DNA of 37,351 nucleotides from assembly GCA_035256725.1 (NCBI GenBank), contig DATEXS010000123.1, forward strand, positions 1 to 37,351, given 5' to 3'. The DNA is from Anaerolineae bacterium (GTDB lineage: Bacteria; Chloroflexota; Anaerolineae; UBA7937; B3-Chlor). The notes below the pieces were generated by a model, which was not told the DNA's origin, searched no databases, and saw only the letters and a program-made list of their open reading frames with translations. The position numbers were made by a program, and so were the translations under genes. Positions 1,332 through 36,155 of the stretch are shown one piece after another (position 1 is the first letter of the stretch; each line of letters opens with the position of its first letter).

Positions 1332-2344
1332 TGATGCGTAAGGAAGCAATGCTCTACGAGAAGCTAGAAGACCAGCTGGTCCAGTGTGCCCTATGCGCAC
1401 ACCGGTGCAGGATCAAGCCAGCAGAGAACGGCATATGCGGGGTACGGGAGAACGTCGAAGGTGTGTTGAACACACTGGTGTATGCAGAGGCCATAGCGGT
1501 GCACGTAGATCCCATAGAGAAGAAGCCGCTATATCACTTCCTGCCCGGTACGCGAAGCTTCTCCATAGCCACCGTCGGGTGCAACTTCCGCTGCCGCTTC
1601 TGCCAGAACGCTGACATCTCTCAGTCCCCTAGAGAGGGGGTGCCTCTGCGGGGGGAGGAATTCCCGCCGGAGCGGGTCGTCGCTGGGGCCAAAGACCACG
1701 GCTGCGAGAGCATCGCCTATACTTACACCGAGCCCACCATCTTCTTTGAATATGCCTATGACACGGCGCGGCTCGCCAGCAAGGAAGGCATCAAGAATGT
1801 CTTCGTGACCAACGGATACATGACGCTCGAGGCTCTGGAGACCATCGGGCCCTATCTTGATGCCGCCAACGTGGACCTGAAAAGCTTCGACGACGGGTTC
1901 TACCGGCGGGTGTGCGGCGCCAAGCTTCAGCCGGTTCTAGACACCATCGAGGCCATGCACCGGCGGGGTGTATGGGTAGAACTAACCACGCTCTTGGTCA
2001 CGGGCCTGAACGATAGCGACGGAGAGCTATCTCAGCTTGCGCACTTCATCGCTGAGTTGGACCCGGACATGCCGTGGCACGTGTCGCGGTTCACCCCCCG
2101 CTACCAGATGCTGGACAGATCCGCCACCCCGGTGGAGAGGATACATAGGGCGGTAGAGATAGGCCGCGAGGCCGGGCTGAGATACGTGTACGCTGGCAAC
2201 GTACCGGGGGACACGTACGAGAGTACCATCTGCCCGTCTTGCGGAGCGGTCGCCATCGCCAGAATTGGCTACCATACGACCCTGAACCTGGAAGGCAACA
2301 GGTGTGCTTCCTGCGGCCAGGAACTGGCTGTTGTTCGGCAATAG
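1331..2344 (+). CDS. amrS: AmmeMemoRadiSam system radical SAM enzyme (AmrS-like)
   Basis: Has the CNFRCRFCQN radical SAM CX3CX2C motif, an N-terminal VQCALCAHRC cluster, and DPIEKKPLYHFLPG. Length and C-terminal CPSCG...CASCG match this family. The start could be 1328, 1331 or 1334. Confidence 0.8.
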   Translation: MMRKEAMLYEKLEDQLVQCALCAHRCRIKPAENGICGVRENVEGVLNTLVYAEAIAVHVDPIEKKPLYHFLPGTRSFSIATVGCNFRCRFCQNADISQSPREGVPLRGEEFPPERVVAGAKDHGCESIAYTYTEPTIFFEYAYDTARLASKEGIKNVFVTNGYMTLEALETIGPYLDAANVDLKSFDDGFYRRVCGAKLQPVLDTIEAMHRRGVWVELTTLLVTGLNDSDGELSQLAHFIAELDPDMPWHVSRFTPRYQMLDRSATPVERIHRAVEIGREAGLRYVYAGNVPGDTYESTICPSCGAVAIARIGYHTTLNLEGNRCASCGQELAVVRQ

Positions 2345-2360
2345 GATGGAGGGATGGTCG

Positions 2361-3485
2361 ATGTTAGACAAACATGAGTTGAGGGAGTTGGCGAGCTACA
2401 GAGATGAAACGAACCTCATCTGCAGTTTCTACTATCCTCTGGAGAAGGGCGAACCGACAGAGCAGGGCAGCCTGATCAGACTCAGGAACATGATCAATGA
2501 CGCTATGGCCAATCAGGGCGACTGGACAAGTGCCCAGGCCAAATCGGTCTACGATGATCTGGAGCGCGTCGAGGGCCTGGTGACGGAGGAGTTGGTCTTG
2601 ACCCGTGGCGGACTGGCGGTGTTTGCCTGCTCTGCCGCCGGCTTGTGGAGGGTATTTCACCTGCCCGACAAGGTGGGGCCGTTGCTCGCGGTGGACCACT
2701 CCATCCGCATGAGGCCGCTAATTGAGTTACTGACCCATTACGAGCGGTATTGCACGGCCCTGGTAGGCAAGGGGAGGGCGAGGATCTTCCTCCTTGACGC
2801 TGCCGGGGTTGAGGAACGCTCGGACGTATTCGGAGAGGTGCCAGGGAGGCACGATCAGGGTGGCTGGGCCCAAGCACGGTACCAGCGCCACCATGACGAT
2901 CGTGTGATGCGCCACTTGAAGGATACGGCCGAAGAGACCTTCTCCATGCTCCAGCAGGAGGAGTTCGATCGACTGTTTGTCGGTGGGACCGAGGAGCTGG
3001 TGAGTGAATTCGTCGAGCATCTACACCCCTACGTGAGGGAGAGGTTCGCCGGCTCGTTTCCCGCTGAGATGACCAGTTCCCCTGCTGAAGTTCAGCGGTT
3101 GACCATGGCTGAGGTGAGCGAGCTTCTCGAGGCTCGCGAGGGCGATGTGATCGAGAAGCTGCGTGCAGAGGTGCACTCCGGAAATCTGGGCGCTGCAGGG
3201 CTTGAGGACACCATTCATGCCCTGCAGAAGGGCCAGGTGATGACGCTGCTGGTCAATGAGGACTTTGAGAGTTCTGGGCTTCGCTGCACCAGTTGCGGTC
3301 AGTTGTCCTTGACCAGCCCATGCGCCTTCTGCGGGGGCGAGACCGAGGTCCTGCCCAGCATGGTCGAGGAACTGGTCAAGCAGGCATTCCTTCAGAACTG
3401 CGAGATGATGTTCATAGGCGGCGACAACAGGGAGAAGCTCGCTGAACTGGGGGGCATAGGCGCCCTGCTAAGGTTCGCTGGCTAG
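2361..3485 (+). CDS. aeRF1-type release-factor-like protein (bacterial baeRF / VLRF1-Vms1-like) with C-terminal zinc ribbon
   Basis: ATG at 2361 follows GGAGGG with an 8-nt spacer, and the listed 2304 start overlaps amrS. HDQGGWAQARYQRHHDD is the motif I associate with bacterial eRF1/Vms1-like proteins. A CTSCG...CAFCGG ribbon lies near the C-terminus. The family call is from memory of motifs only. Confidence 0.55.
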   Translation: MLDKHELRELASYRDETNLICSFYYPLEKGEPTEQGSLIRLRNMINDAMANQGDWTSAQAKSVYDDLERVEGLVTEELVLTRGGLAVFACSAAGLWRVFHLPDKVGPLLAVDHSIRMRPLIELLTHYERYCTALVGKGRARIFLLDAAGVEERSDVFGEVPGRHDQGGWAQARYQRHHDDRVMRHLKDTAEETFSMLQQEEFDRLFVGGTEELVSEFVEHLHPYVRERFAGSFPAEMTSSPAEVQRLTMAEVSELLEAREGDVIEKLRAEVHSGNLGAAGLEDTIHALQKGQVMTLLVNEDFESSGLRCTSCGQLSLTSPCAFCGGETEVLPSMVEELVKQAFLQNCEMMFIGGDNREKLAELGGIGALLRFAG

Positions 3486-8046: not shown

Positions 8047-8613
8047 TGGATCAGGGCAGGAGGAAAGGGTCGCCACAGCCGCCAGTTGAAGCGGACCGGG
8101 TCTACTTTCACGCGCGTGCGAGCAATCGCCACCACCCAAAGGGACTTCCGGAGAATATTCCGTGAGTCGATCTGCCACTTTCCGGCCCTGTTAGCGACCA
8201 GGCTGGCCTGTCCGAGGGGCTCTCTCCGAGCAACGCTTTGACAGGCGGCGAGCCCTCCTTGGTGATGGGTCGTCGGCATCGTGAAGCTCCGCGCATCTAG
8301 TGCCCTGCTCAGGTGTTGAGGTACACAAGCTTGGGGTCGGGACCGACATTCGCCGCTGATCCCGATTCTGGCCGGTCAGGGAAGGCGCCAGCGTGTGGTA
8401 GGCCTGCCCGGCTGGGGATAGGAAACGCGACGGATAGGTCGGGGCGCTGGCTGTCTGGGGCCGTGGGCGGTAGGTCCGGGACGCGAACGAGGAATGGTTG
8501 AGCAAAGCGGGGATCGGAATTGACAGGCCCACATATAATGCACCGACATATGCCCTTTGTGCTCGGCCGCGGAATGCGGCTTGGCATACGGCTCTGCGGG
8601 TGATGGCGGGGAC

Positions 8614-8642
8614 TTGACATTTTGTGGGATATATGCTATTAT
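8614..8642 (+). promoter_or_regulatory. sigma70-type promoter for the permease transcript
   Basis: TTGACA, a 17-nt spacer, then TATTAT, with TGc immediately upstream (extended -10). About 155 nt upstream of ATG 8806. Confidence 0.5.
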
Positions 8643-8721
8643 AATGGGTTAGGTGGCCCCGAACGCCGCGAACAGGTCTCTCTGGTTGGATTCCCACATT
8701 CAGGGGTTGCACGAGGAGGTG

Positions 8722-8793
8722 ATGCCAACGAAAAATAGAGACGGGTCCGTTTTGAAACCACGAGAAGCTAGCATGCCCATTGGAGGGAAATAG
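8722..8793 (+). CDS. candidate 23-codon leader ORF (MPTKNRDGSVLKPREASMPIGGK)
   Basis: The ATG is preceded by GAGGAGG, but with only a 2-nt spacer. Its TAG stop lies inside the AGGAGG Shine-Dalgarno of the permease gene. Too short to judge coding potential. Confidence 0.25.
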   Translation: MPTKNRDGSVLKPREASMPIGGK

Positions 8794-8805
8794 GAGGTTT
8801 CGAAA

Positions 8806-10554
8806 ATGGAAGAAAAGACCTTGTTCGCCCGTAAGGCGACCGGACTGGTGCGAGAGATCGGCTTCTCGACGGCGATCATCCTGGCCGTCTGCAACGCAGT
8901 GGGCTTGGGATGGCAGAAGCGGGTCTTCCAGGCCATCGGCGCCGAGAGCGTGTACCCCCAGGAGTATGTCCTGGGCATTCACCCCATGGTCATGGCCTTT
9001 CTCCTGATCGGGATCTTGATGTTGGTCTCGATCTACGCCTTCGCTGTGTTGTCGTCAGCGATGCCCCGTTCCGGAGGAGGCTATGTCTTCATGTCGAGGA
9101 TCATCAACCCCGGCTTCGCCTTCGTGGCGACCTGCCTGGAGTTCCTCTCCGTGGCCATTTCCTACGGCCTGATCGCGGTCGCCACCTTTGAAGCCACGTT
9201 GATCTTCGGCAGCCTGGCCGGCGTCGATACCAGCGGGCTGGCGAATCCCTACTTCATGAGCATCTTCGGGATTGTGATCATCGCCTTCTTCAGCGGCATC
9301 GCCTGCCTGGGCACCCGGATGACGGGGTATGTGCTGCACGTGATGTTCTGGATCCCCGCAGGCATCCTTGCCGTGGTGTACCTGGTCTTCATCGTGGCCA
9401 ACCCTCCGGCCATGGAGGCTGGAGTGGGAGCCATTACCGCGGGACACACGGCCGCTGAGTACACGCAGGCGGCTATCGACCAAGGCCTGACGTCTGGCAT
9501 CTACTGGAGCGCCGTGTTCGCGGCCAGCTTCTACGCCTACTGGGCGTATATCGGCTACGCCGCTGCCACCTTTGTGGCTGGTGAAGTGAAGGAAGCCAGC
9601 CGCAGCTTGCCCAAGATCATCTTTATCTCGGGGATCGTGATCATGGGCATCTACATGTCCATCTCCTTCCTGTTGGCTCGGGCGGGTGGTATGGCCGGCG
9701 TGGTGGATGTAGGGGGAGGCAAGACGTGGAGCCTGATAGACGCCGTGGGTTACTTGGGGCCCGGCGCGGGCAGCTTCGAAGATGCAGGCTTGCCCACCAT
9801 TGGGGCCTGGATGCCGTACTTCGCCGGCATCTCGGCCTACGGCGTCTTTGGTGCCGGTATGGGCAAGCTCTTCGGCATCTTGATGTTTGTGATGGGCACC
9901 ATGTGGGTTGCCAACGACATCCCGCCGTTCATCCTGACTTGCTCCCGCATGCTCTTCGCTATGGGCTTCGACCGCATTCTGCCGGAGTGGGTCGCCGATA
10001 TCAATGAGAAGCGGGCCTCACCGGTGAACGCCATCATCGTCACTTCGGTGGCGGCGTTGGTCGGCGTGGTAGCGGAGGCGGAGTTGTTCGGGGATGCTGG
10101 CCTGGCCTTCCTGAAGCCCATTCTGCACAGCCCCTTTGGGCAAGGGTGGATCAGCTCGTCCGGCGCCATCGTGGCCACCGACCTGTGGGATGCCCTGTTC
10201 TTCGGCGGCATGGGTCTGGCCTGCGCCTGGTTCCCGTCGAAACTTCCAGAGGTCTTCGAGCGGGCTCCATGGCGGCAGAGCAGGGGCCTGGTTGTAGGCA
10301 TGGGATATGCGGCCTTTGCCACTAACGTCTTGCTGTCGTTGTTGATCCTGTGCCACGGTGCCGGCTATGGCTGGGGCCCCTCGTTCTCTCTCGGTCCTTT
10401 GGGGCACTTCGGGGGCAACTGGCTCAGCCTGAACTTCTGGTTCACGGTCGTGCTGATCGTTGTCTCCGCGCTCGTGTACTACTGGGGTCGCAGCCGGGCA
10501 AAGCGCGTGGGCGCGGACTTGACCACCATTTTCGCCCAGATTCCACCGGAATAG
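8806..10554 (+). CDS. APC superfamily amino acid/polyamine permease
   Basis: 582-aa polytopic membrane protein with APC-like N-terminal and mid-protein motifs (AMPRSGGGYVF, GYAAATFVAGEVKEASRSLPK). AGGAGG lies 8 nt upstream of the ATG. Confidence 0.85.
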   Translation: MEEKTLFARKATGLVREIGFSTAIILAVCNAVGLGWQKRVFQAIGAESVYPQEYVLGIHPMVMAFLLIGILMLVSIYAFAVLSSAMPRSGGGYVFMSRIINPGFAFVATCLEFLSVAISYGLIAVATFEATLIFGSLAGVDTSGLANPYFMSIFGIVIIAFFSGIACLGTRMTGYVLHVMFWIPAGILAVVYLVFIVANPPAMEAGVGAITAGHTAAEYTQAAIDQGLTSGIYWSAVFAASFYAYWAYIGYAAATFVAGEVKEASRSLPKIIFISGIVIMGIYMSISFLLARAGGMAGVVDVGGGKTWSLIDAVGYLGPGAGSFEDAGLPTIGAWMPYFAGISAYGVFGAGMGKLFGILMFVMGTMWVANDIPPFILTCSRMLFAMGFDRILPEWVADINEKRASPVNAIIVTSVAALVGVVAEAELFGDAGLAFLKPILHSPFGQGWISSSGAIVATDLWDALFFGGMGLACAWFPSKLPEVFERAPWRQSRGLVVGMGYAAFATNVLLSLLILCHGAGYGWGPSFSLGPLGHFGGNWLSLNFWFTVVLIVVSALVYYWGRSRAKRVGADLTTIFAQIPPE

Positions 10555-10699: not shown

Positions 10700-10870
10700 G
10701 ATGGGCCAGGTGGCGGCACAAGAGCTGTGCATCTGAAGGGGGAAGAGTTCGCGTTGGTCTGGCTGTTCATCCCCCACGGCGGGTACTTCCCCAGGAAGGC
10801 GAGGTCGATGGCGGAAGACCACGCTGGCGGAGCGGCCGGTGCGGTCCTTGTCGATTTGACCTCCCCTTGA
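10700..10870 (+). pseudogene. 3' fragment of a paralogue of the 11120-11596 gene
   Basis: GTRAVHLKGEEFALVWLFIPHGGYFPRKARSMAEDHAGGAAGAVLVDLTSP aligns ungapped with TTISRFLKEEEYAWAWLVIPHEGSFSSKARLMVERNDSREIGIALVDLSSQ, with 24 of 51 positions identical by hand. The N-terminal two thirds are missing, and the upstream frame runs into the permease terminator. Confidence 0.45.
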
Positions 10871-11040: not shown

Positions 11041-11069
11041 TTGCTTCCGCACCCACCTTGTGCTACAGT
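11041..11069 (+). promoter_or_regulatory. sigma70-type promoter for the 11120-12844 operon
   Basis: TTGCTT, a 17-nt spacer, then TACAGT with TGc extended -10. This places the TSS after the listed 11060 start. Confidence 0.45.
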
Positions 11070-11119
11070 TGCCGCATTATCTCTGCCCACGCCAGATCCG
11101 AGTATGCGAGAGCTGGGGA

Positions 11120-11596
11120 ATGAAGGTCAACGAATACCTGGTTAAACTGGAAGATAGCCTCATGGTCGGAAGCGGTAGGTGGCTGGCCGACTTCAACGAA
11201 TCCTTCTGGGAATATCAACTGGGGGACTTCGTCTTCGACATGTTTGTCACAGCGAAGGTGAGACCCAAGGGCTTCTTCCTTTCCAGGGTAGCGTCGTGGC
11301 TGCTGATGCCTAACTACTACGTCGTTTGCCTGGCCTATTCCAAAGACCACGAGGTGAGACAGTTGCATGACTTGTTGACCACAATCTCCAGGTTCCTGAA
11401 AGAGGAGGAGTACGCCTGGGCTTGGTTGGTTATCCCCCACGAGGGCTCTTTCTCCAGCAAGGCCAGGTTGATGGTGGAGAGGAACGATAGTCGAGAGATT
11501 GGCATAGCCCTGGTTGATCTCAGTTCCCAGGAGATAGTCCACGCCTCGTCATACTGGGGCCAGAGGATGCCCAGGTTCATCAGGTGCTTCAAGTGA
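11120..11596 (+). CDS. hypothetical soluble protein (158 aa)
   Basis: First in-frame ATG after the predicted TSS. No family recognised. Its C-terminal 50 aa are duplicated in the 10700-10870 fragment. Confidence 0.55.
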   Translation: MKVNEYLVKLEDSLMVGSGRWLADFNESFWEYQLGDFVFDMFVTAKVRPKGFFLSRVASWLLMPNYYVVCLAYSKDHEVRQLHDLLTTISRFLKEEEYAWAWLVIPHEGSFSSKARLMVERNDSREIGIALVDLSSQEIVHASSYWGQRMPRFIRCFK

Positions 11597-11619
11597 GAAC
11601 GGTCGCACCGCTGCAGGTA

Positions 11620-12051
11620 ATGAACCTCACCATGTCTTTGATCGCCTTTTTTCTCCTTACTTCATTCGCCTGGTTCGCGGCCGGTTTTGTTGTTTTCAGG
11701 GAGATCGTGATCTCGCGGCCGGTTTTCGGCATCAACATAGCCCTGACTGGCCTGCTGGGATGGTGGTGGTACAGGGCTCAATATCACGCCGTCTTTTCCT
11801 GGGATCAGCAGGGTTTCGAGTTGACTAAGGGTAGGGGGCGCAAGAGCATAAGGAAGTGGCAGGATTTCTCACAAGTATCCCTGGTTCATGAGGGATATGG
11901 CAGGTTCCTGGTGAGGCTCTACGGGGACGGTGGGGAGTACTTGGATATCCCGGCTTCGGCCTTGAAGTTGCCCCCCTCCGACTTCCGTTTCGAGGTGCTG
12001 GACTTGGTGAAGAGGGAGCAGCCGGCGGACGGGGTGGACGAACCCGCATAA
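11620..12051 (+). CDS. small membrane protein: two N-terminal TM helices plus a beta-rich C-terminal domain (bacterial PH-like?)
   Basis: Hydrophobic segments LIAFFLLTSFAWFAAGFVVF and FGINIALTGLLGWWWY are followed by about 85 residues with alternating-pattern strands. The start is uncertain (GTG 11584, ATG 11620 or 11632). Confidence 0.5.
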   Translation: MNLTMSLIAFFLLTSFAWFAAGFVVFREIVISRPVFGINIALTGLLGWWWYRAQYHAVFSWDQQGFELTKGRGRKSIRKWQDFSQVSLVHEGYGRFLVRLYGDGGEYLDIPASALKLPPSDFRFEVLDLVKREQPADGVDEPA

Positions 12052-12064
12052 GGAGGAGGAAAAG

Positions 12065-12844
12065 GTGGCCACAACAGACGAGATCTCAACACGAGCGGTG
12101 ACCATGGAAGAAGAAGTGCGGCGCGTAATCGATGCTGGACGGGACAGGGGCATACATCTGAGGGTGATCGGAGGCACGGCAGTGAAGTTACACTGTCCCA
12201 GTGCCGCACATCGCTCCATGGCTCGGATCTATGGTGACATTGACATGGTGGGCTACCGCAAGCAGCGGCTCGAGGTGGCCCGCCTGATCGAAGATCTGGG
12301 GTACCAGCCCAACCGGCGCTTCAATGCGCTGCAGGGACACCGTCGCTTGCTCTTCGACAACGCCACGCTGGGCTACGATCTTGATGTCTTCCTCGATGTC
12401 TTCGTCATGTGCCACCAGTTGAGCCTGGTCGGCCGACTGGAGCTGGACGATTATTCGGTGCCCATTGAGGAGTTGCTGCTGTCCAAGCTGCAGGTGGTCT
12501 TGCTCAATGAAAAAGATGTCAAAGACGGTTACGCGCTGCTCTTCGATCACGACATCGCGGAGGGTGAAGACCGAGAGACCATAGACCCGAGGTTCATCGC
12601 CAAGCTGTGCGGCGATGACTGGGGGTGGTACAAAACCCTGACCTTGAACATCGACAAACTCTTGGCCCTGGCTGACGACTACCTGGAAGAAAAGGAGAAG
12701 GGAGTTTGCGTGGAGCGACTCCACCGGCTGCGGCAGGTGATCGAGGAAGCCCCGAAATCGATGAAGTGGAAGTTGAGGGCCAAGGTCGGCGAAAAGAAGC
12801 GCTGGTATGAGTTGCCCGAAGACGTGGTGACTCACCAGTACTAG
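12065..12844 (+). CDS. uncharacterised nucleotidyltransferase-fold protein (paralogue 1)
   Basis: The GTG start is preceded by AAGGAGGAGGA. LRVIGGTAVKLHC...YGDIDMVGY and a later DLDVFLD fit the Pol-beta-type hG[GS]...DxD plus third-carboxylate pattern. It is clearly homologous to the 14854-15750 product. Confidence 0.65.
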   Translation: MATTDEISTRAVTMEEEVRRVIDAGRDRGIHLRVIGGTAVKLHCPSAAHRSMARIYGDIDMVGYRKQRLEVARLIEDLGYQPNRRFNALQGHRRLLFDNATLGYDLDVFLDVFVMCHQLSLVGRLELDDYSVPIEELLLSKLQVVLLNEKDVKDGYALLFDHDIAEGEDRETIDPRFIAKLCGDDWGWYKTLTLNIDKLLALADDYLEEKEKGVCVERLHRLRQVIEEAPKSMKWKLRAKVGEKKRWYELPEDVVTHQY

Positions 12845-12890
12845 GGTCTGATGCCCGGGGTGGCAGTGTAAGAAGTGCTCTGGATTAAGG

Positions 12891-12920
12891 CAGCACCCCG
12901 CCCCCAAGGGCGGGGTGCTG
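12891..12920. terminator. GC-rich hairpin between convergent genes (possible bidirectional terminator)
   Basis: 13-bp perfect stem CAGCACCCCGCCC/GGGCGGGGTGCTG with loop CCAA. There is no clear U-tract on either side. Confidence 0.55.
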
Positions 12921-12951
12921 GAGTTGTCGGCAGGCGTTTGGGGGTTTGCAG

Positions 12952-13905
12952 TTAGGCATCAACTCTACGCAGCTGCGTCAGTTTGGGACCGTCGATCTCC
13001 ACCAGGAAACCTTTCAAGATCCCCTCGCCATACTCGCTGCCTGGATTGAGGCACTCTGTGCGGCCGATTTTCACCCGCCCCGGACTCTCATGGATGTGGC
13101 CGTGCAAGCCCATCATCGGCTGGTATTTCTCTATGATTTTGCGAACGGCTGTGGAGCCTACGGCCACGGATTGGGTATGGCCGCCTGCGGTTACCAGACT
13201 CAGGTCTTCATGAAGCAGCGGTGCCTCGTCAATGAAGCTTTTATAGGGTGGCGCATGGATGCAGAACGCGGCGGTTTCTAAGTTCTTAACTTGAGCAACC
13301 ACCCGTTCCAGTTTCTGCTCCATCTCCTCCTCGCAACACTCCCGAGGGGAGTCGAACGGAGTGGGATTTGACCAACCGAAGCACAGAACCTCATGTTCAT
13401 CATCCAGCTGCACAACCTCTTCCTCCCCAAAGAGTACCTGAGGATTAGGGTCGGCCCTGATGACTTGATCAATAGAGAACTTGTCATCGTTGCCTGGGCT
13501 GATGATCACCTTGCAAGTGGGGGGGACGCGGTCCGGGATGAGGGTCAGCCAATACCTGATGACCTCACATTCCATCCTCTCGAAGACGTCTTCCTTGTAT
13601 TGCATATCTGTGAAGAGCCGCTCCACTTCTTCAGGGGTGGTGCGGTAGGGGATGTAGCAGATCATGCGGCATTTCTTCTCGAACTCGGGGACTTCTTCCT
13701 CGGTCAGCACCTCGGGTTGGCCGTAGAAGGTGGCGTCATACCTACCATCAGGCCGCTTGACGATGGGGACCAGCAGCTTTCCGGTCATGTCACCGCTGAT
13801 GACCAAGGCGTCAAGATCGAAGTACTTCGCGGAGTTGAGGAACTTGCGCCAGACCGTCTCTGAGCCGTGAAAATCGGTGGAAAAGAGAAACTTGGTCTTG
13901 GCCAT
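12952..13905 (-). CDS. calcineurin-like metallophosphoesterase
   Basis: Motifs in the canonical order: FSTDFHG, ISGDMTG, SPGNDD, IHAPP, GLHGHIHES. Confidence 0.85.
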   Translation of the reverse strand: MAKTKFLFSTDFHGSETVWRKFLNSAKYFDLDALVISGDMTGKLLVPIVKRPDGRYDATFYGQPEVLTEEEVPEFEKKCRMICYIPYRTTPEEVERLFTDMQYKEDVFERMECEVIRYWLTLIPDRVPPTCKVIISPGNDDKFSIDQVIRADPNPQVLFGEEEVVQLDDEHEVLCFGWSNPTPFDSPRECCEEEMEQKLERVVAQVKNLETAAFCIHAPPYKSFIDEAPLLHEDLSLVTAGGHTQSVAVGSTAVRKIIEKYQPMMGLHGHIHESPGRVKIGRTECLNPGSEYGEGILKGFLVEIDGPKLTQLRRVDA

Positions 13906-13979
13906 TGACTTGTCGTCCTTTCCGTTGTCATGAGTGCCGGCATGACGCGTGGCGACGCCGGCCGGGGCTGCCTACGGGA

Positions 13980-14007
13980 TTGACTACAGTAAGAACTATT
14001 ATACCAT
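13980..14007 (+). promoter_or_regulatory. possible promoter for the USP gene
   Basis: TTGACT, a 16-nt spacer, then TACCAT. The -10 is weak and overlaps the -10 of the opposing phosphoesterase promoter. Confidence 0.3.
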
Positions 14008-14026
14008 GATGGATACAGATTGCCAA
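13998..14026 (-). promoter_or_regulatory. sigma70-type promoter for the metallophosphoesterase
   Basis: The minus strand reads TTGGCA, a 17-nt spacer, then TATAAT, with TGG extended -10. Confidence 0.55.
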
Positions 14027-14068
14027 ACAGCAGACCTACACATGGTGAGACAAGCCGGAGGTGTTGAG

Positions 14069-14500
14069 ATGTATGATCGCATACTGGTCCCCCTGGATGG
14101 ATCTGACCTGGCCAGGGCCATCATCCCACGGGTGCAAACCATGGCCAGCGCCCATGGGTCCGAGGTGATCTTGCTCGAGGTTTTGCCCCAGTCGGGGGTG
14201 TTGCCCAAGACAGCGGCCAAGGAGAGACGGGAGGCGGAGGAGCACCTGATGGCTGTGGAGCAGGAACTCCTCGATGCCGGGGTGAATGCCCGTCACACGA
14301 TCAGGCACGGCTCGGATCCGGCCGCAGAGATCGTGGACTACGCCGAAGTCAACGATGTTGATCTGATCGCTATGTCCACCCACGGGCGCAGCGGCGTCAG
14401 CCGTTGGGTGTTCGGCAGTGTGGCGTCCAAGGTGCTGAGGGGCACCAGCAAGCCGATTCTCCTGGTCCGGGCACCCGGGGCCACCGTAACACAGGGCTAG
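14069..14500 (+). CDS. universal stress protein (single USP domain)
   Basis: MYDRILVPLDGS start with GGAGGTG upstream. C-terminal DLIAMSTHGRSGVSRWVFGSVASKVLRGTSKPILLV is the USP ATP-binding-type motif. The listed 13949 start is an upstream extension. Confidence 0.85.
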   Translation: MYDRILVPLDGSDLARAIIPRVQTMASAHGSEVILLEVLPQSGVLPKTAAKERREAEEHLMAVEQELLDAGVNARHTIRHGSDPAAEIVDYAEVNDVDLIAMSTHGRSGVSRWVFGSVASKVLRGTSKPILLVRAPGATVTQG

Positions 14501-14853
14501 GCCCTGACCCCTCGCCACAGCCTTGAGATCTGCCCTAGCCGAAGATGCCTATGACGAACCAGGGCAGGTACAGGCCCGGCGCCCTGTGTAGCCAAGTAGA
14601 GACTGGTAGACACGGCAGTTCGCCCGGAGCAGGCCTGGCTTGGGCCAGCGGAGAAAAGCGCGGAGTCGTGAGCGTTGTCATGGCGTCGTCGCCAGGCACG
14701 GGGCCAAGTGCCTTCCCAGAGGCCGTCGGATTGCACCTAGCTCGCTGCCCATGGGGGGCAGCAGGGGTCGAAGTATCAGCAACGAAGTGCGGGCGGTCCC
14801 TCCGCGACAAGTTCTCCAAAGGGACGCGTCCACGGGTCAACGAGTAGGAGGCC

Positions 14854-15750
14854 CTATTTGCCTCTCTCTTCGGGCATCATGCGCCAGATACCGAAGTCAC
14901 CCACGGTGTCTTCAGTCTCAACAGGCTCGTACCACCTCTTTCTAGGTCCTATCTTGGAGCGCGCCTTCCAGCCCGTGCTCTTGGGCTCCGCCTCGATGCG
15001 GGAGAGCAGCGCGTCGATCCTCTCCTGTACAACTTGAGCCTCTTCTGCCGACAAGGCCTCCATTCGTGGAAGGAGATCCCGGATCCCCTTAAGGTTGGTG
15101 GTTAGGGTATACCAGAAACCCCAGTCTTTGGCCAGCAGGTCCGCGATATATGCGCAGTTGATCGCGTCCTCCTTATCCTGCTCGGCCAGTTCGTGGGCAT
15201 AGAGCAGCAATAGGCTGTCTTTGAAGTCCTTCTCGCTGAAGTGCACGATTTGCAGCTTTTCCAGGAGAAGATCGGTGGGGTCTAACGTGAGGGGGTCGAG
15301 CTCCAATCGCCCGCGGAAATCCAGGCGATGATTGGCCACCCGAAGCTGGTCGAAGAATACGTCCACGAAGAACCACCCGTGCTCGTGGAAGTAGATCTGC
15401 CTCTCGCTGGCTGCGGAAGAGAGGGTTGCCCGTCTTTTCTGATACCCCATGGTCGCAAACAAGTCAGGCATGCGCTTGCGGAACTCCTTGTAGCTGACGA
15501 AATCCAGGTCGGTGAACTCCGCATCACCCGTGCCAAGCCTGACCAGCCTGAGGCCCAACTCTTCGCACTCCAGAGTATGGAGCCTTATGCCAACCCCGCC
15601 CATGACTCGCAGGAGAAGTCCCTCTTCCGCGCCTCTCTCCACGATTGTGCGTGCCTCTGTGAGGAATACCTCTGAGGGCACCACGCCGCCCCACTCCTGG
15701 GGCATGCGTATCTCCCTGGCGTCCTCCTCTATCCGTTGTAGCCATACCAT
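14854..15750 (-). CDS. uncharacterised nucleotidyltransferase-fold protein (paralogue 2)
   Basis: Blocks are shared with the 12065-12844 product: LRVMGGVGIRLHT / LRVIGGTAVKLHC; DLDFVSY / DIDMVGY; GRLELDPLTLDPTDLLLEKLQIV / GRLELDDYSVPIEELLLSKLQVV; KDWGFWYTLT / DDWGWYKTLT; KRWYEP / KRWYEL. Confidence 0.65.
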   Translation of the reverse strand: MVWLQRIEEDAREIRMPQEWGGVVPSEVFLTEARTIVERGAEEGLLLRVMGGVGIRLHTLECEELGLRLVRLGTGDAEFTDLDFVSYKEFRKRMPDLFATMGYQKRRATLSSAASERQIYFHEHGWFFVDVFFDQLRVANHRLDFRGRLELDPLTLDPTDLLLEKLQIVHFSEKDFKDSLLLLYAHELAEQDKEDAINCAYIADLLAKDWGFWYTLTTNLKGIRDLLPRMEALSAEEAQVVQERIDALLSRIEAEPKSTGWKARSKIGPRKRWYEPVETEDTVGDFGIWRMMPEERGK

Positions 15751-15787
15751 CGCTCAGTCCCCCTCCTCCCGCGTGACCACGTACGGC

Positions 15788-16639
15788 CTACAGGATATAG
15801 ACCAGTCCCAGCCCCAGAATAGACACAACAATGAACTCGACAATGACAGTTGGCGCCAGGCGGCCGCGCAGGTGCTGCCTGGCCAGTCCGCTCATCACAT
15901 AGAAGACCAGCAGGAAAAACACCCCACTTCCCACCTCGCCCAGGCTCAAATGATTGAGGGCCCAGGCCACCTCTCCCAGCACAAGCCCGACGATCACAGA
16001 GTAGAGCCAGGTGCGTTTCACCGCGGAAGCAGGTGTGCGGGGGCGCAATAGTTCGGCAGCCAATCCCGACCCTAGCAGGAAGACCGCCGTCGCCGACAAG
16101 AGGCTGCGCGCGCGTGCTTCGTAGATTAGGGTACAGAAGACGAACACACTTGCGTAGACAGCCAAGCTTAGACCCCACCCAGCCATGTCATCCCCAGGTC
16201 CCTCAGGGTCGACAGTGCGATACTGGGCGATCACTGTCAACGAGAGGAGCAGTCCTGTCATAGCCAGGCCACCCAACCAGAATGATAGACTAGGCGACGA
16301 CGGCAGGGCGATGAAGGCAAAGAGGACAAGGGCGCAGGGCAAGGCCCAGAGGGTAAGGCCGTATGCCCAGCCGGCATCGCGTGCCAGAGGGTGCGACCGC
16401 ACAATGGAATCCGCGCCCGCACCCGTCATCGCGACCAGGAGTGCGCCGACGAACCACCGGCCGGAGAGATAGATGGTAGTGGGCACTCCCAGGGCCACGA
16501 AAGAGACGGTCCTTGTCGGCAACTCGACCACATGGGAGACCATCAGCCCGAAGAGAACCAGACTGACCAGAATGCTTAGCCTGTCGTAGCGAGGCATCAA
16601 TGCGGTACCTTGCGCATGGCCGATGGGTGGAAGCAACAA
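15788..16639 (-). CDS. polytopic integral membrane protein, family not recognised
   Basis: About 8 hydrophobic segments. It lies 38 nt upstream of paralogue 2 on the same strand. The start could be TTG 16639 or the internal MPRYDRL ATG about 42 nt downstream. Confidence 0.6.
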   Translation of the reverse strand: MLLPPIGHAQGTALMPRYDRLSILVSLVLFGLMVSHVVELPTRTVSFVALGVPTTIYLSGRWFVGALLVAMTGAGADSIVRSHPLARDAGWAYGLTLWALPCALVLFAFIALPSSPSLSFWLGGLAMTGLLLSLTVIAQYRTVDPEGPGDDMAGWGLSLAVYASVFVFCTLIYEARARSLLSATAVFLLGSGLAAELLRPRTPASAVKRTWLYSVIVGLVLGEVAWALNHLSLGEVGSGVFFLLVFYVMSGLARQHLRGRLAPTVIVEFIVVSILGLGLVYIL

Positions 16640-16669
16640 CCGGTCTTGTGACCCAGGGCGCTACTCGCC

Positions 16670-16698
16670 ATTCTACCGTCGCCCTTTGGCTTTGTCAA
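16670..16698 (-). promoter_or_regulatory. sigma70-type promoter for the membrane protein / NTase paralogue 2 operon
   Basis: The minus strand reads TTGACA, a 17-nt spacer, then TAGAAT. Confidence 0.55.
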
Positions 16699-16714
16699 AT
16701 CTGTGTGGTACAAT
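16686..16714 (+). promoter_or_regulatory. sigma70-type promoter for the prepilin peptidase gene
   Basis: TTGGCT, a 17-nt spacer, then TACAAT with TGG extended -10. It overlaps the opposing promoter back to back. Confidence 0.5.
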
Positions 16715-16744
16715 CCACGCCAGGTCGAACGCAGGGGGTATGCT

Positions 16745-17497
16745 GTGGCTTACCTGTACGGTGTTTTGGGGCTGGCGGTTGGAGCCCTCCTGAATCTAGC
16801 CGCCGATTTTCTTCCCCAGCGCCGCCCTCTCCTGACCCAGCCTTCCAGTCCACGACGCGACAGCGGTTGGTCGTGGAGGGACTCCGCGGCTCTGGTCGGC
16901 CTGCTGGCAGGGAGGGGACAGCGCCCGCCAGGCGGTGCCGCGTTGCCCTTGCGTCGGCCGGTACTAGCGGTGGTGACGGCAGTCTCCTTCGCCTTTTTCT
17001 GGCTGAGGTATGGTCCGTCCGTCCAGCTACTACTGGTAAGCCTTTACGCCTGCGCCCTCTTTCTGATCTTCGTCATCGATCTGGAACATCGTCTGATTCT
17101 CCGGGTCGTGGTCTGTCCAGCCATTGGGCTGGCCCTGGTGGGCAGTCACTTCTATCCTGGATTGGGGCTTCGACGCGCTGTCATCGGCGGCGTCCTGGCC
17201 TTCCTCTTCTTCTATCTGGTGGCTGTCCTGGGCCGGCTCATCTTCCGGAGAACGGCTATGGGTGGAGGTGACGCCAACCTGGCGGCGTACGTGGGGCTGA
17301 TCACCGGGTTTCCTGAGATTATCCTCGCCTTGCTGATCACTGTTTGCCTGGGCGGCTTGGTGTCGTTGGCGCTCGTGGTTGGCGGATTCAAGGGGCTGCG
17401 AAGCTACATCCCGTACGGGATATTCCTGGCCACTGGGGGCTTGATCGTGCTCGTGTTCGGCAGGGAGATCATAGGCTGGTATTTTGGCCTGTACTAG
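16745..17497 (+). CDS. A24 family prepilin peptidase
   Basis: FVIDLEHRLI (first Asp box) and GGGDANLAAYVGLITG (GxGDxK-like second Asp box) in a polytopic protein. GTG 16745 follows AGGGGG by 6 nt and lies after the predicted TSS. The listed 16703 start lies inside the promoter. Confidence 0.75.
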   Translation: MAYLYGVLGLAVGALLNLAADFLPQRRPLLTQPSSPRRDSGWSWRDSAALVGLLAGRGQRPPGGAALPLRRPVLAVVTAVSFAFFWLRYGPSVQLLLVSLYACALFLIFVIDLEHRLILRVVVCPAIGLALVGSHFYPGLGLRRAVIGGVLAFLFFYLVAVLGRLIFRRTAMGGGDANLAAYVGLITGFPEIILALLITVCLGGLVSLALVVGGFKGLRSYIPYGIFLATGGLIVLVFGREIIGWYFGLY

Positions 17498-17607
17498 GGG
17501 GCGCAGGCTCTCCACAGTTGACGGCCGACGTCACGCCCGGCCCCACGATGGCTGGGACGGACCTGCATGCGGTGTCAGTTCATACACGAAGCGAGAGGTA
17601 TATCCTG

Positions 17608-18297
17608 ATGCGAACAACTGCTGACCAGGAGATGCTGCTGCGGGGAGGCAGGGCGGGCCAACTGGCGACCTTCATCAGCCTGGTGATGGTATTCGCTGGC
17701 CTAATCGTCTCCTTCACTCAGTACAGGGTGGCGACCTTCCTTTTGATAGGGCTGGGTGTAGTGATGTACACGGTTGGTAGCCGCAGTCAAGAGCAGGCCG
17801 CGAGAGAGCCCTGGCTGATCAAACAGCTGACGGACGCCCTGGCGGAGTTCGACGATAGATACCATCTCTACAGCCACGCGCTGCCCGCAGAACACGTGCT
17901 TCTCACCCCTCACGGTGTCTTTGCGCTCATCGTCAGGGGGATGGATGGCAAGATTCGCTGTTTCAAAGACAAGTGGGTGCGGGCACTGACCTTGCGGCGG
18001 GCACTTCGCTTCTTCACTGAGGAGTCCCTGGGCAACCCCACCAAGGAGGTGCAGCGGGACGTGGAGAAGCTGGCCGAGTACATCCAGGCGCGTGCTCCAG
18101 GGGCCCAGGTGGATGTGCAGGGTGTGGTCGTGTTCGCTAACCCGGCCGCGCAGCTAGAGATAACATCGGCGTCTTTTCCCGTCTTGCCTTTGACGAGGTT
18201 GAAGAGCCACATCCGCAAGGCGTCGGGGCGGATGGAGATGGCGCCGGAGACGCTGAGGACGTTGACCGACCTCTTCGGGGAACGGCCTCCACGCTAG
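17608..18297 (+). CDS. NERD domain protein with N-terminal membrane anchor
   Basis: ATG 17608 is preceded by GAGAGG. Two hydrophobic segments are followed by YHLYSHALPAEHVLLTPHGVFALIVRGMDGKI, which resembles the NERD core. The listed 17344 start overlaps the upstream gene. Confidence 0.65.
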   Translation: MRTTADQEMLLRGGRAGQLATFISLVMVFAGLIVSFTQYRVATFLLIGLGVVMYTVGSRSQEQAAREPWLIKQLTDALAEFDDRYHLYSHALPAEHVLLTPHGVFALIVRGMDGKIRCFKDKWVRALTLRRALRFFTEESLGNPTKEVQRDVEKLAEYIQARAPGAQVDVQGVVVFANPAAQLEITSASFPVLPLTRLKSHIRKASGRMEMAPETLRTLTDLFGERPPR

Positions 18298-26185: not shown

Positions 26186-29100
26186 CTAACCCATCTCGAC
26201 CTGAACTTCGTGGGCCTTGCCGTCGCCCAGCAGGGGGATTTCCAGGCCAGGCAAGACGTCTCCGTCGAGCATCACGTTTTTCACTCCCTGGTTCACTCCC
26301 TGAGGATTCCGCACTGAGATTCGATATAGCGTCCCCCCATCCCTGTAGTTGATTCTGTAGCCTGGCCAGTCTCTCGGAATGCAGGGAGAGATCTGGAAGG
26401 ACGCGCCACTGCGCTGAAGCCCCAAAATCGCCTCCAGGCCGACTCTGTACATCCAGCTTGCGGAGCCGGTGTACCAGGTCCAGCCGCCATGGCCCTTGTG
26501 GGGAGCCACACTGTACACGTCTGCCGCGACCACATAAGGCTCGACCATGTAGCGAGCGACCTGCTCGGGGCTGGCAGCATGGTGGATCGGATTGAGCATC
26601 TCGAAGAGTCTTTGGGCACGGTCCCCCTGGCCCAGCTTGGCAAAGGCCCAAATCGCCCACAGGGCGCCGTGCGTGTACTGACCTCCGTTTTCGCGGACCC
26701 CTGGGGGATAGCCTCTTATGTAGCCCGGATCGTCCAGTGTCCTGTCGAAGGGCGGAGCGAAGAGCGTCATCAACTGGCTCTCGCTATCTACGAGGCGGGC
26801 GGCGACCGCCTCCATTGCCTGGCGGGCACGAGCGGGTTGGGCCCCGCCGGACAGGACGGCCCAGGCCTGGGCGATTGCGCTGATCTGGTACTCGGCGGCT
26901 TGGGACGTCCCTAGCGGCGTCCCATCGTCGTAATAGGCGCGCAGGTACCAATCTCCGTCCCATCCGCTGGTCTCCAAGGCCTGGCTCAACTGCTGTGCCT
27001 GGCTCAGGTAGGCGGAGGCGCGTCTCTCGTCGCCTGCCCGCCGGCAAAGGGGAGCAAAGGCTGTCAAGGTGGCGTACAGAAACCAGCCGAGCCAGATGCT
27101 CTCCCCCCGACCGGCAATGCCTACCCGATTCAGCCCGTCATCCCAGTCCCCGGTGCCGATGAGCGGCAGCCCATGGCGGCCAGCAGTTGTTCCCTTTAGC
27201 AGGGCGCGATGGCAATGCTCGTAGAGCGTGTGGGCTGTGTCGGTACTCTCGTAGCTACCATATCTTTCCTGCTCCCCCGGCTCCAGGGGCTCGCCGTCGA
27301 GAAAAGGCAGCCTCTCCTCCAGGATAGCGATGTCTCCGGTTGTGGTTACGTAGTGTGCGGTGACGAAAGGAAGCCAGAGCAGATTATCTGAGATCCGCGT
27401 GCGAACGCCTTTCCCCGACGGCGGGTGCCACCAGTGCAGTACATCGCCGGCCTCGAACTGACGGCGGGCTGCCTCCAAGATATGGGCGCGAGCCAGCTCC
27501 GGCGCGGCAAGCACCAGGGCCATCACGTTCTGCAACTGGTCCCGAAACCCGAAGGCGCCGCTCGACTGGTAGAGCGCGGAACGCGCCCACAAGTGACACG
27601 ACAGGGTTTGGTAAAGCAGCCAGCGATTCAGGAGCACGTTCATGGCCAGATCGGGCGTCTCCACGGTGACTGTGCCCAGCAGGTCGTCCCAGAAGCGGTG
27701 GGTAGCCTCCCAGGCGGCTTCCACCTCCGTCGGGTCCCGATAGCGCTTGGCCAGGCGGACGGCATCGGCGTGATCGCCGCCTTGCCCGAGCAGGAAGAAG
27801 ATGTCCTTGGCCTGGCCAGGGGCCAGGTCGATGTGCAGTTGAAGGGCTGCACAAGGATCGAGGCCGGCTTGTATAGCGCTGGCCAGCCCAACCCTGCCGA
27901 GGGCCTCCGGCCGGCTCAAGGTTCCCTGGCACCCCAGGAATTCCGCGCGGTCGGCGGTCAGGCCGTGCGGTGACTGGTTGGCCGCCACAAAGGCAACACG
28001 GCTTCCATACGGTTCGTTGTACGGGTTGCGGGCCAGAAGGGCCTGGCTCTCTTCGTCGTACTCTGGGATGATGTACTGGTGGGTTACTTCGTGGAATGTG
28101 CCGAGTACCCATTCGGCGTAGAAAGTCGCGGTGAGCCTGCGGTTCCGTTTCCAAAGGTTCTCCAGCCGCAAATGCGCTATCTTCACCGGTGCCTCCGGGG
28201 CCACAAAGAGGCGCAGGCGCTGTTGCAGGCCATGGCTGCGATGCTCAAAGACGGAATAGCCAGCCCCGTGCCGGATCAGGTAAGGCGACGGCGCACCAGC
28301 CGGCAGAGGAGTGGGCGACCACATGAGCCCCGTCTCCTCGTCCCGTAGATACAGCGCCTCGCCTGGGACATCGCCCACAGGATCGTTGCGCCACGGAGTA
28401 AGTCGGTTCTCACCGCTATTCTCTGACCAAGTGAAGCCACTGCCTGCTTCGGAGACCAGGAATCCAAAACTGGGATTGGCGACCACATTGACCCAGGGGG
28501 TCGGGGTCATTTGTGATGGTTCGAGATAGATGACGTATTCACGCCCGTCGGCCGTGAAGCCGCCCAGGCCATTGTCGAAGAGGAGGCCGGTGGGCCGGGG
28601 CAGCGGTGAAGTGGCCTCCACGTCCTCGGGTTTGGGCAGGGTCGGGAAAAGCGGCGGCAGACGCGAAGGCTTGGTGGGCACCTCCTTGAGTTGCTGAGAC
28701 AACGAGCCCTTCTCGCCGTCTAGGGTCACTCGAGCCGCAGTCTCTATTAGCACCAAATCCTGTTGGCTCATCTGCTCAGCAAAGAGGATAAAGATCCCAC
28801 CACGCTGGTTCAGGGAGCTGTCCTGACCCAGGGTGGTGATTAGCGAGCGTAACTGCCCGTGCAGTGGTTGGTCGTAACCCGAGTCTTTCTGGTTCAAGAT
28901 CACTAGATCTATGTCGATCTGCTGCCTGCGCCAGTAGGCATGAGCCCGGAGCACTTCTCGGACCAGAGCCAGCCCACCCTCGCTCTCCAGGCGCAGGAGC
29001 AAGATGGGATGGTCGCCGGAGATCGCGTAGGGCCACAGGGCAGTCTGACCTTTGGTGTTAGCCGCGAGGAGCGCCGGGTCGGCGCGCAAAGCAGCGTGAG

Positions 29101-35740: not shown

Positions 35741-36155
35741 GGGTATACTCCCTTCCTGTCGCTGGTACCGACAGTCCTTTCCTAATCTCCTGGCCAAATC
35801 TTGCTGTAGCGGCCCGATCACCTGAAGCGATCGCTCAGACGAGCCCGATCGAGCAGACTGCGTGCTAGTGGGCGCTCCGTTCTGGGCTTGATACGTACTA
35901 CCGGACGTTCAACCCCTCGCCTGACGTGGGCGCATAGAGCCATTGTGCGAGCACTTACTGCCGGCCGAGCAGGGCAGTTGGTGAGCGCGCTCAGTTGTTC
36001 GGCACTGATGGTGCAGCCCAGACTCCGCTCGATGCTGGACGGGGTCCCGTCAAGAACGTAGCTGGCTCCGGCATAGCATGGAGCGCAACCTCTCAGACCT
36101 TTGGGCGACTCGATTCTTCAGGCGTGGGCATATTCGGTCATTCCCGGCTGTGTGC

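Follow-up and report, generated by a model that had tools for sequence, protein, structure and literature searches.

A conserved chromosomal cassette of an APC-family permease, a metallophosphoesterase and a minimal nucleotidyltransferase, and its expanded form in Anaerolineae

The analysis of a 37,351-nt stretch of DNA from an Anaerolineae bacterium (assembly GCA_035256725.1, contig DATEXS010000123.1; the whole stretch is referred to as the window) centred on two paralogous nucleotidyltransferase (NTase) genes, NT1 and NT2, which lie on either side of a metallophosphoesterase (MPE) gene and a universal stress protein (USP) gene. The region is the expanded Anaerolineae form of a widespread chromosomal three-gene cassette, comprised of an APC-family permease, a binuclear MPE and a minimal NTase. 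We consider it very probable that the permease, MPE and NTase work as one conserved functional unit, and that this unit does not serve in defence. In the libraries and literature that were searched, the NTase family, the role of the MPE subfamily and the three-gene cassette are undescribed; the superfamilies themselves are well known.

A scan of one genome per GTDB species identified relatives of the NTases in at least 579 species, which included Chloroflexota, Actinomycetota (Solirubrobacterales, Thermoleophilia, Gaiellales and Streptosporangiaceae), Halobacteria, Bathyarchaeia, Micrarchaeota, Thorarchaeota, Bacillota and Acidobacteriota. The window proteins were compared by tblastn with 80 loci, of which seven carrying a third paralogue were set aside, leaving 73; the neighbouring genes were clustered from greedy, non-overlapping open reading frames (ORFs) and cross-checked by tblastn. 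Within 10 kb of the NTase gene, an MPE homologue was present in 60 of the 73 loci and a permease homologue in 54, and most of the loci that missed one of these partners did so at a contig end. The MPE gene was directly adjacent to the NTase gene (<300 nt) in 34 loci, 20 of which had the order MPE > NT on one strand (arrowheads give gene direction). The three genes formed a tight operon, permease > MPE > NT with 3-90 nt between them, in Actinomycetota (L030, L064, L068) and Micrarchaeota (L033), and a Bathyarchaeia locus (L076) had MPE > NT adjacent and the permease divergent. The neighbourhood is therefore conserved beyond this genome, and none of the outcomes that a preliminary description of the region had held against a module (a neighbourhood restricted to this genome, or paralogues that belong to a well-characterised housekeeping family or lack the catalytic carboxylates) was found.

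In the window, the left operon (+ strand) starts with the gene of a small soluble protein of an orphan family (158 aa; 11120-11596), followed by the gene of a two-transmembrane (2TM) protein with an N-terminal hydrophobic hairpin and a conserved soluble C-terminal domain of ~90 aa (11584-12051), and ends with NT1 (12065-12844), which encodes a minimal Pol-beta-type NTase of 259 aa with a helical C-terminal domain. The 2TM gene overlaps the small-protein gene by 13 nt, and NT1 starts 13 nt past the 2TM stop. Convergent on NT1 is the MPE gene (12952-13905, - strand), whose product of 317 aa is of the aq_1956/TT1561 (Metallophos_3-like) type, and this is followed by the gene of a single-domain USP (14069-14500, + strand; 143 aa, counted from M41 of the ORF). 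The right operon (- strand) is comprised of a gene for a polytopic DUF5656 membrane protein (15788-16639) and, 37 nt downstream and last, NT2 (14854-15750; 298 aa). All of these genes were present where the preliminary description had placed them, with each paralogue last behind a membrane protein and the MPE and USP genes bracketed between the two. Its module boundaries were drawn too narrowly, as the most constant partner, the APC-family permease gene (8806-10554, + strand; 582 aa, ~12 or more transmembrane segments), was left outside. The window proteins match HJX37748-HJX37755 of an Anaerolineae metagenome-assembled genome (MAG).

A promoter scan returned five sites compared to 1.9 expected. 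Promoter-like sites with 11/12 matches precede the DUF5656-NT2 operon (16698-16670, - strand; TTGACA-17-TAGAAT) and the MPE gene (14026-13998, - strand; TTGGCA-17-TATAAT with TG), and a 9/12 site precedes the USP gene (13980-14007, + strand; TTGACT-16-TACCAT), so that the MPE and USP sites stand back to back within 13980-14026. The earlier claim of a near-consensus promoter for every unit was thus confirmed in part only, and the site that it implied at 11041 fell below the scan criteria. The spacer between the convergent USP and NT2 genes (14501-14853) is unusually long at 353 nt and contains no convincing gene; a tblastx search of it returned a marginal echo to an insertion in L011 and nothing more. 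Extra genes are inserted at this position in L001 and L011, and the L001 set includes a V4R-domain protein.

At NT1 homologues of 58-75% identity, the Anaerolineae retained the block APC permease > small > 2TM > NT1 < MPE in the six loci that were looked up. The usual continuation, USP > < NT2 < DUF5656 with a divergent A24 peptidase gene, was observed in L001, L005, L006 and L007; the left half alone was kept in L002-L004, and the flanking genes varied between the Anaerolineae loci. The DUF5656 gene was directly upstream of NT2 in L001, L006, L007, L008, L011, L012, L013 and L016, and the USP gene kept its position in the module in ~10 Anaerolineae loci. Other arrangements included a single co-directional string, permease > NT2-like > small > 2TM > NT1 (L021), and a co-directional NT2 > MPE without the USP gene (L014). 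Small-protein orthologues always preceded the 2TM gene. The tblastn matches to DUF5656 were confined to Anaerolineae, as were those to the small, 2TM and USP proteins, with the exception of small and 2TM matches on one Bathyarchaeota contig (L090, JACAEK010000004.1). There, permease > small > 2TM is accompanied by two NT2-like genes and by an MPE gene whose product is 63% identical to the window MPE; DUF1512 and aminoacyl-tRNA synthetases of the archaeal kind are encoded on the same contig. The Bathyarchaeia loci L027 and L028 have NT1-like and NT2-like genes in a convergent pair, with an MPE gene. These loci suggest that the module has moved between Anaerolineae and Bathyarchaeia as a unit. 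In a complete Anaerolineae genome (L089; CP070818.1, 3411449-3430396), an NT1-like gene stands on one side of the MPE gene and a truncated NT2-like fragment of 174 aa on the other; no permease gene was present within 9 kb, and a GDPD glycerophosphodiesterase gene lies 2 kb away.

NT1 and NT2 share 36% identity over 245 residues (E 1e-40), and by sequence comparison their paralogy is far above chance. In an alignment of 68 sequences from both paralogue groups (A1), the residues G36, G37, D58, D60 and D107 were invariant (68/68), as were R33, D111, H117, R124, K141, Q143, K150, D151 and D154 and, in the C-terminal part, W186, G187, K231, W235, R238, W247 and Y248. The AlphaFold2 model of NT1 was confident (pLDDT 90.7, pTM 0.88) and comprised strands at residues 32-35, 58-63 and 104-110, a helix at 37-43 and a helical domain at 134-257. 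The GG pair lies in the turn between strand 1 and helix 2, strand 2 carries the DxD motif and a later strand carries D107, so that the Pol-beta-like motifs hG[GS], [DE]h[DE]h and h[DE]h are in their expected places, and the top fold matches were all NTases. The NTase fold and catalytic carboxylates put forward in the preliminary description were thereby borne out by the model, by Foldseek and by the invariant GG, DxD and D positions. All of the Foldseek matches of NT1 in the PDB were weak; the best was MenT1 (E 7e-4, TM-score 0.40/0.53), and others included LnuA, ANT(2'')-Ia, H. pylori JHP933, TM1012, CCA-adding enzymes and terminal uridylyltransferases, with FKRP lower down.

Neither paralogue reached the gathering threshold of PF14907 (NTP_transf_5; 31.2 bits), with NT1 at 30.2 bits over profile positions 47-126 of 249 and NT2 at 13.7 bits, and a precomputed table marked this domain in only part of the NTase homologues. 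When the 68 members were scanned with Pfam at E <= 1, NTP_transf_5 was found in 61, DUF6036 in nine, ANT(2'') in five and AbiEii in one. No significant PDB sequence match was found for NT1 or NT2, even by profile, and there was no NCBIfam or PADLOC match for either. Each paralogue had ~1,400-1,600 homologues in a collection of 5.8 billion proteins, mostly from MAGs of Anaerolineae and other Chloroflexota at 57-99% identity; where names were shown, they were 'hypothetical protein', with one exception, a cluster called 'nucleotidyltransferase family protein'. When 1.84 billion representatives were searched by profile, 3,040 clusters at 50% identity were returned, 958 of them at E <= 1e-30, and nearly all were single-domain proteins of 245-275 aa. 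NT1 and NT2 therefore represent a distinct family of the Pol-beta NTase superfamily, distantly related to PF14907 and to minimal NTases of the ANT(2'')/Lnu/MenT type and assigned here to none of these. The proposal that the paralogues lie outside any characterised family agrees with the weak fold matches, the sub-threshold PF14907 scores and the lack of a PDB sequence match.

In a neighbour-joining tree, NT1 was placed beside a third Anaerolineae paralogue, and NT2 with sequences from Bathyarchaeia, Thorarchaeota, Bacillota and Limnocylindria. As they fall in different clades, NT1 and NT2 are two old paralogues, and the reading of the inverted pair as the functional unit was not supported. A recent local inverted duplication was rejected as the primary reading, given the 36% identity and the different clades. 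The third paralogue is longer (385-390 aa; L018-L024 and L026, e.g., L019:9542-10708) and has an N-terminal extension without a Pfam match. The operon around it is conserved and also encodes a GAF histidine kinase, a DUF4388 protein and three proteins of the Roadblock/LC7 type; neither an MPE nor a permease gene is nearby. Rare fusions were also identified: an NTase with a type-I phosphoribosyltransferase in Micrarchaeota (L033:9953-11671) and in representative P0542, and, in proteins P0518 and P0569, a winged helix-turn-helix (wHTH; MarR/IclR-like) with an NTase and an AhpC/TSA peroxiredoxin with an NTase.

The MPE scored just below the cut-off of Pfam Metallophos (20.3 vs. 21.5 bits). Its invariant ligands were D11xH13, G38-D39, G138-N139-D140(D141), H217 and G269-H270-x-H272, and its AlphaFold2 model was confident (pLDDT 94.6). 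The closest Foldseek matches were 2yvt (aq_1956; E 2e-11) and 1uf3 (TT1561; E 2e-8), with target TM-scores of up to 0.75; later matches included SbcD/Mre11, purple acid phosphatases and MPPED2, and 37 matches in total were found at E <= 1e-3. The metal-binding motifs and the fold place the protein in the calcineurin-like metallophosphoesterase superfamily. It carries an inserted subdomain at approximately residues 44-125, and 5,148 homologues were found, the top 120 of these at 60-95% identity. Judged from the modelled structure, the closest folds would not allow its substrate to be inferred.

The permease was assigned to Pfam AA_permease_2 (73.5 bits), and the nearest NCBIfam models were of the 2.A.3.6 type, with a partial match to an ethanolamine permease. 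No significant PDB sequence match was found for the MPE or the permease, and profiles A1-A4 likewise returned nothing from the PDB. The permease gene is preceded by a strong promoter (TTGACA-17-TATTATAAT) and a conserved 5' leader of ~160 nt, together spanning 8613-8805 (+ strand). The leader blocks CGCCGCGAAC, GTTRCACRAGGAGGTGATGC and GAAACC...GGAGGTTTC were invariant in 16-18 orthologous loci; conservation was lower in the coding region, with ~72% identity between the permease proteins of several such loci. The leader contains a perfect complement of the anti-Shine-Dalgarno sequence (AGGAGGTGAT) and a possible upstream ORF of 23 codons (8721-8792; MPTKNRDGSVLKPREASMPIGGK), the stop of which overlaps the permease Shine-Dalgarno sequence and the frame of which is not preserved in all of the orthologous loci. 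A putative GAAACC/GGTTTC helix would also overlap the Shine-Dalgarno sequence. When the leader pattern was searched in metagenomes, 57 matches were returned, and 42 of these were unrelated coding sequences. A riboswitch was considered and rejected, as there was no Rfam match and no covariation (RNAalifold, 16 sequences). As a candidate regulatory element, the leader could in time point to the ligand.

The USP is a clear member of Pfam Usp (PF00582; 105.5 bits vs. a 24-bit cut-off). Its ATP motif reads S-T-H-G-x9-G-S, a variant of the form S-x2-G-x9-G-S in which the canonical first G is replaced by S, and it is predicted to bind a nucleotide. The DUF5656 protein scored 150.9 bits against PF18900 (cut-off 23.3 bits) and had eight segments in a hydropathy scan; nothing was found for it in NCBIfam or PADLOC, and no literature on the family was found. 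In the 2TM protein one strong hydrophobic stretch was evident, but the second was weaker in what is a crude hydropathy scan. The invariant residues of its alignment (A4) were H53, W77, VSL-H87 and RLY, and searches of Pfam, PDB, NCBIfam and PADLOC returned no match. The small protein was similarly without a Pfam, NCBIfam, PADLOC or PDB match, even by profile. A decayed remnant of a second copy of its gene is present in the spacer between the permease and small-protein genes (10733-10867, + strand; 51% identical to the intact copy across 45 aa, E 1e-12), and two intact tandem copies are present in the relatives L008-L010.

In other lineages the cassette has neighbours of a metabolic kind. A megaplasmid of Halobellus limi, NZ_CP031312, carries at DV707_RS16290-16315, as annotated, genes for an IclR regulator, an iron-dependent alcohol dehydrogenase (Fe-ADH), an aldehyde dehydrogenase (ALDH), a metallophosphoesterase, a hypothetical protein, which is the NTase, and an APC permease. 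In the Halobacteria loci L031, L036, L037 and L050, Zn-ADH and ALDH genes lie beside MPE > NT, all of them co-directional in L036, L037 and L050 and separated by gaps of a few nucleotides in L050. The Halobacteria string reads Zn-ADH > ALDH > MPE > NT. The best NCBIfam model for the Halobacteria ALDH was betaine-aldehyde dehydrogenase (506 bits, under the equivalog cut-off). An ALDH gene lies between MPE and NT in Thermoleophilia and Solirubrobacterales. In Limnocylindria and Chloroflexia, a DAO-FAO_M-GCV_T protein, with the architecture of dimethylglycine/sarcosine dehydrogenases, was encoded in 17 loci and an APH/choline-kinase-like kinase in 15. The remaining examples were an M20 deacylase in one actinobacterial clade, a glutamine-synthetase-like gene directly after NT (L030), an aminotransferase gene before NT (L034) and the GDPD gene of L089. 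Taken together, these neighbours are suggestive, through guilt by association, of enzymes of amine or amino-alcohol metabolism of the choline, ethanolamine or polyamine type.

From the fold, the motifs, the linkage and these contexts we infer a substrate class, an order of steps and roles for the accessory proteins. Tentatively, and with rather less than even confidence, we propose a small-molecule mechanism of amino-alcohol-type cation uptake, nucleotidyl transfer and phosphodiester hydrolysis. The permease would import an organic cation, most likely a choline- or ethanolamine-type amino-alcohol head-group compound or its phosphoester. The NTase, with NTP-Mg2+ bound at D58, D60 and D107, would nucleotidylylate a hydroxyl or phosphate of the imported compound, comparable to the action of ANT(2'') and LnuA on amino-sugar antibiotics. 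The MPE would then cleave the substrate or the nucleotidylated intermediate at a phosphoester or phosphodiester bond, and the product would enter ADH/ALDH-, dimethylglycine-dehydrogenase- or glutamine-synthetase-type enzymes where these are encoded next door. The extra proteins of the Anaerolineae (small, 2TM, DUF5656 and USP) would probably tether or regulate both paralogues at the membrane, NT1 with the small and 2TM proteins and NT2 with DUF5656.

Several points weigh against this mechanism. Nothing in the analysis identifies the substrate, and the purpose of a nucleotidyl transfer in a catabolic route is not obvious. The ADH, ALDH, dimethylglycine dehydrogenase (DMGDH) and kinase neighbours are missing from the Anaerolineae loci, and the ALDH and kinase matches were under the NCBIfam equivalog cut-offs; the metabolic neighbours are each specific to certain lineages, and their presence could in part be due to synteny and not to function. 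MenT1, the closest structural neighbour, acts on tRNA and not on small molecules. There are also regulatory or signalling hints, namely the USP, the cNMP-binding proteins of L002 and L004, the wHTH-NTase fusion and the operon of the third paralogue. The cNMP-binding protein (~165 aa) is a stand-alone protein with no HTH; its gene lies directly upstream of MPE in L004 (9892-10386, - strand), and an orthologous gene adjoins an NT2-like gene in L002 (1409-1906, + strand), and neither locus has the USP gene.

These hints could instead be consistent with a transporter-coupled nucleotide switch, which we regard as possible though doubtful. Here the NTase and the Metallophos_3-type MPE would be a make-and-break pair whose target is either a signal derived from a nucleotide or a covalent nucleotidyl mark carried by the transporter complex. 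The APC permease would be gated by, or would report on, its own substrate, with USP and cNMP-binding proteins as possible readers in Anaerolineae and one paralogue for each membrane partner.

In a separate rival reading, the NTase would AMPylate or UMPylate a protein, either the permease or, in Anaerolineae, the 2TM, DUF5656 or small protein, and the MPE would strip the nucleotide to give a self-regulating transporter. The permease is the invariant partner whichever catabolic genes are nearby, both Anaerolineae paralogues show translational linkage to a membrane protein, the third paralogue is found in a signal-transduction operon (Roadblock/LC7, DUF4388, GAF histidine kinase) and a wHTH-NTase fusion exists; moreover, minimal NTases often modify proteins. 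However, the haloarchaeal cassette lies inside an IclR-controlled, catabolic-looking cluster, and the genes of such clusters usually encode pathway enzymes. No MPE is known to work as a de-AMPylase, a conserved acceptor motif did not emerge, and the structural neighbours are small-molecule and tRNA NTases. We consider a writer and eraser of this kind unlikely.

The idea of nucleotide signalling came from the preliminary description. Worked out as a second-messenger module, it would have the nucleotide made by the NTase and degraded by the MPE as an 'Icc-related', class-III-like phosphodiesterase, with the USP, cNMP-binding proteins or permease as receptors. The pairing of a synthetase with a hydrolase would suit such a scheme. 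The USP, encoded between MPE and NT2, has a near-canonical motif predicted to bind nucleotides, the cNMP-binding protein gene is upstream of MPE in L004 and beside the NT2-like gene in L002, and GAF-kinase genes adjoin the third paralogue. Against this, there was no CD-NTase/SMODS, OAS/cGAS or RelA-type likeness among the top fold or Pfam matches, and the closest MPE structures are uncharacterised proteins and not cNMP phosphodiesterases. In Actinomycetota, Halobacteria, Bathyarchaeia and Limnocylindria the cassettes have metabolic neighbours and lack the receptor-type genes. We therefore regard a second messenger as improbable. Of the self-contained nucleotide-signalling, stress or defence module first suggested, the defence part has fallen away and the signalling part is kept at this low standing, as the contexts elsewhere point to small-molecule (amine or amino-alcohol) metabolism.

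The defence part was examined through several searches. No PADLOC match was found for NT1, NT2 or the small, 2TM, USP and DUF5656 proteins, and the MPE gave one weak, generic match, to the candidate system PDC-S10 (E 1.7e-7). There were no matches in 50,697 phage genome records, one match in 72,556 plasmids, on a non-mobilizable haloarchaeal megaplasmid, and nothing in a viral fold library at E <= 1e-3. The rest of the window is comprised of housekeeping chromosome, with genes for an M23 peptidase, DUF72, a radical SAM protein, baeRF, PBP1, SelA, a primary sigma factor and tRNA-Gly. For CD-NTase/SMODS enzymes of the CBASS kind, no PADLOC or Pfam match was found, none (cGAS and OAS included) was among the top 50 PDB fold matches, and no effector gene was nearby. 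A toxin-antitoxin or anti-phage role of the MenT/AbiEii or CBASS kind is thus scarcely credible and, together with CBASS-like signalling, was rejected as the primary reading: the weak MenT1 fold match, a weak AbiEii Pfam match in one of the 68 members (E 0.024) and the PDC-S10 match of the MPE are outweighed by a neighbourhood of permease, MPE, USP and membrane proteins with no antitoxin-like partner (AbiEi/wHTH, MenA or HEPN), by the lack of a PADLOC match for either NTase, by absence from phages and near absence from plasmids, by the linkage of the cassette to the permease, and by the Anaerolineae orthologues, 57-99% identical, which keep their synteny with housekeeping genes.

The small-molecule mechanism and the cassette on which it builds are of interest for several reasons. 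The NTase family is large, with ~3,000 clusters when grouped at 50% identity and members in at least 579 bacterial and archaeal species, and has no dedicated Pfam or NCBIfam model. The linkage of the family to a single subfamily each of MPEs and APC permeases is near-obligate and defines the three-gene unit. Solving the chemistry of the cassette would assign a function to MPEs of the aq_1956 and TT1561 types. It could reveal a new route for the handling of choline- or ethanolamine-type compounds in soil Actinomycetota, Chloroflexota, haloarchaea and Bathyarchaeia or, alternatively, a new coupling of nucleotide chemistry to transport; the interest would be greater only if it were true that the make-and-break pair gates transport or yields a new signal. 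The findings also correct the tempting reading of a cluster of NTase, phosphoesterase and membrane-protein genes as a defence system.

Other genes of the window were recorded in passing. A type IV prepilin peptidase (A24) gene (16703-17497) is divergent from the DUF5656 gene and syntenic in at least six related Anaerolineae loci, and a gene for a NERD-domain membrane protein follows it (17344-18297). An ORF of 2,855 aa (26186-34753, - strand) has the architecture of a cyclic beta-1,2-glucan synthase/phosphorylase, its domains being glucoamylase-like, GH94 supersandwich and GH94 catalytic, and lies near the gene of a tandem-USP protein (34778-35821, - strand). At 1328-3485, a bacterial eRF1-like gene (baeRF family 10/acVLRF1) has its start within a radical SAM gene.

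The components of the cassette were compared with known families and systems. PF14907 is the only Pfam family that recurred among the NTases (61 of the 68 members), and it has the N-terminal GG...DxD core in common with them. However, NT1 and NT2 scored under its threshold, ~80 of the 249 profile positions align, and PF14907 is itself functionally uncharacterised. MenT1 and the AbiEii-type toxins, together with H. pylori JHP933, provided the best structural matches to NT1 (8an5/8an4, E ~1e-3; 4ok0); unlike these, NT1 and NT2 have no antitoxin and no defence signature, are not mobile and are strongly conserved vertically. The MPE has the closest fold to, and the same metal-binding motifs as, aq_1956 (2yvt) and TT1561 (1uf3), structural-genomics proteins to which no function has been assigned, but in it GNDD replaces GNH[DE] and ~80 residues form an additional subdomain.

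GlnD, with its nucleotidyltransferase and HD domains, GlnE, and MNT acting on HEPN are systems of reversible nucleotidylylation. The cassette differs from these in that the homology is at the superfamily level only and the remover is an MPE rather than an HD or AT-N domain; the pairing of an NTase with a phosphoesterase-type remover is shared with these systems, as may be a regulatory logic. ANT(2'')-Ia and LnuA resemble NT1 in having a minimal NTase core and a helical C-terminal domain (Foldseek 4fo1, 5kqj, 5cfu and 4wqk), and weak Aminoglyc_resit Pfam matches were present in five of the 68 members (best E 0.0045). The TM-scores were 0.35-0.59 and the identities 13-16%, however, and the NTase family is chromosomal, with MPE and permease, and not in a resistance context. 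The hydroxyls that ANT(2'') and LnuA modify belong to cations of the amino-sugar type, in keeping with the permease and with the amine-metabolism context.

Lic is comprised of the permease LicB, the kinase LicA, the cytidylyltransferase LicC and the NTase-fold transferase LicD, and GbsAB of an Fe-ADH and a betaine-aldehyde dehydrogenase. The cassette permease is of a different family from that of Lic, and the MPE has no counterpart there. No LicC or LicD Pfam match was found in the 68 members at E <= 1, LicD and FKRP gave weak fold matches only (E 0.08-0.3), and the choline-kinase-like gene is limited to loci of the Limnocylindria type. The resemblance to Lic, drawn by analogy, is therefore one of logic and not of homology: a permease, a kinase and nucleotidyl activation appear to be combined in a similar way, alongside the Fe-ADH/ALDH, choline-kinase-like and DMGDH-like neighbours of the cassette in other phyla.

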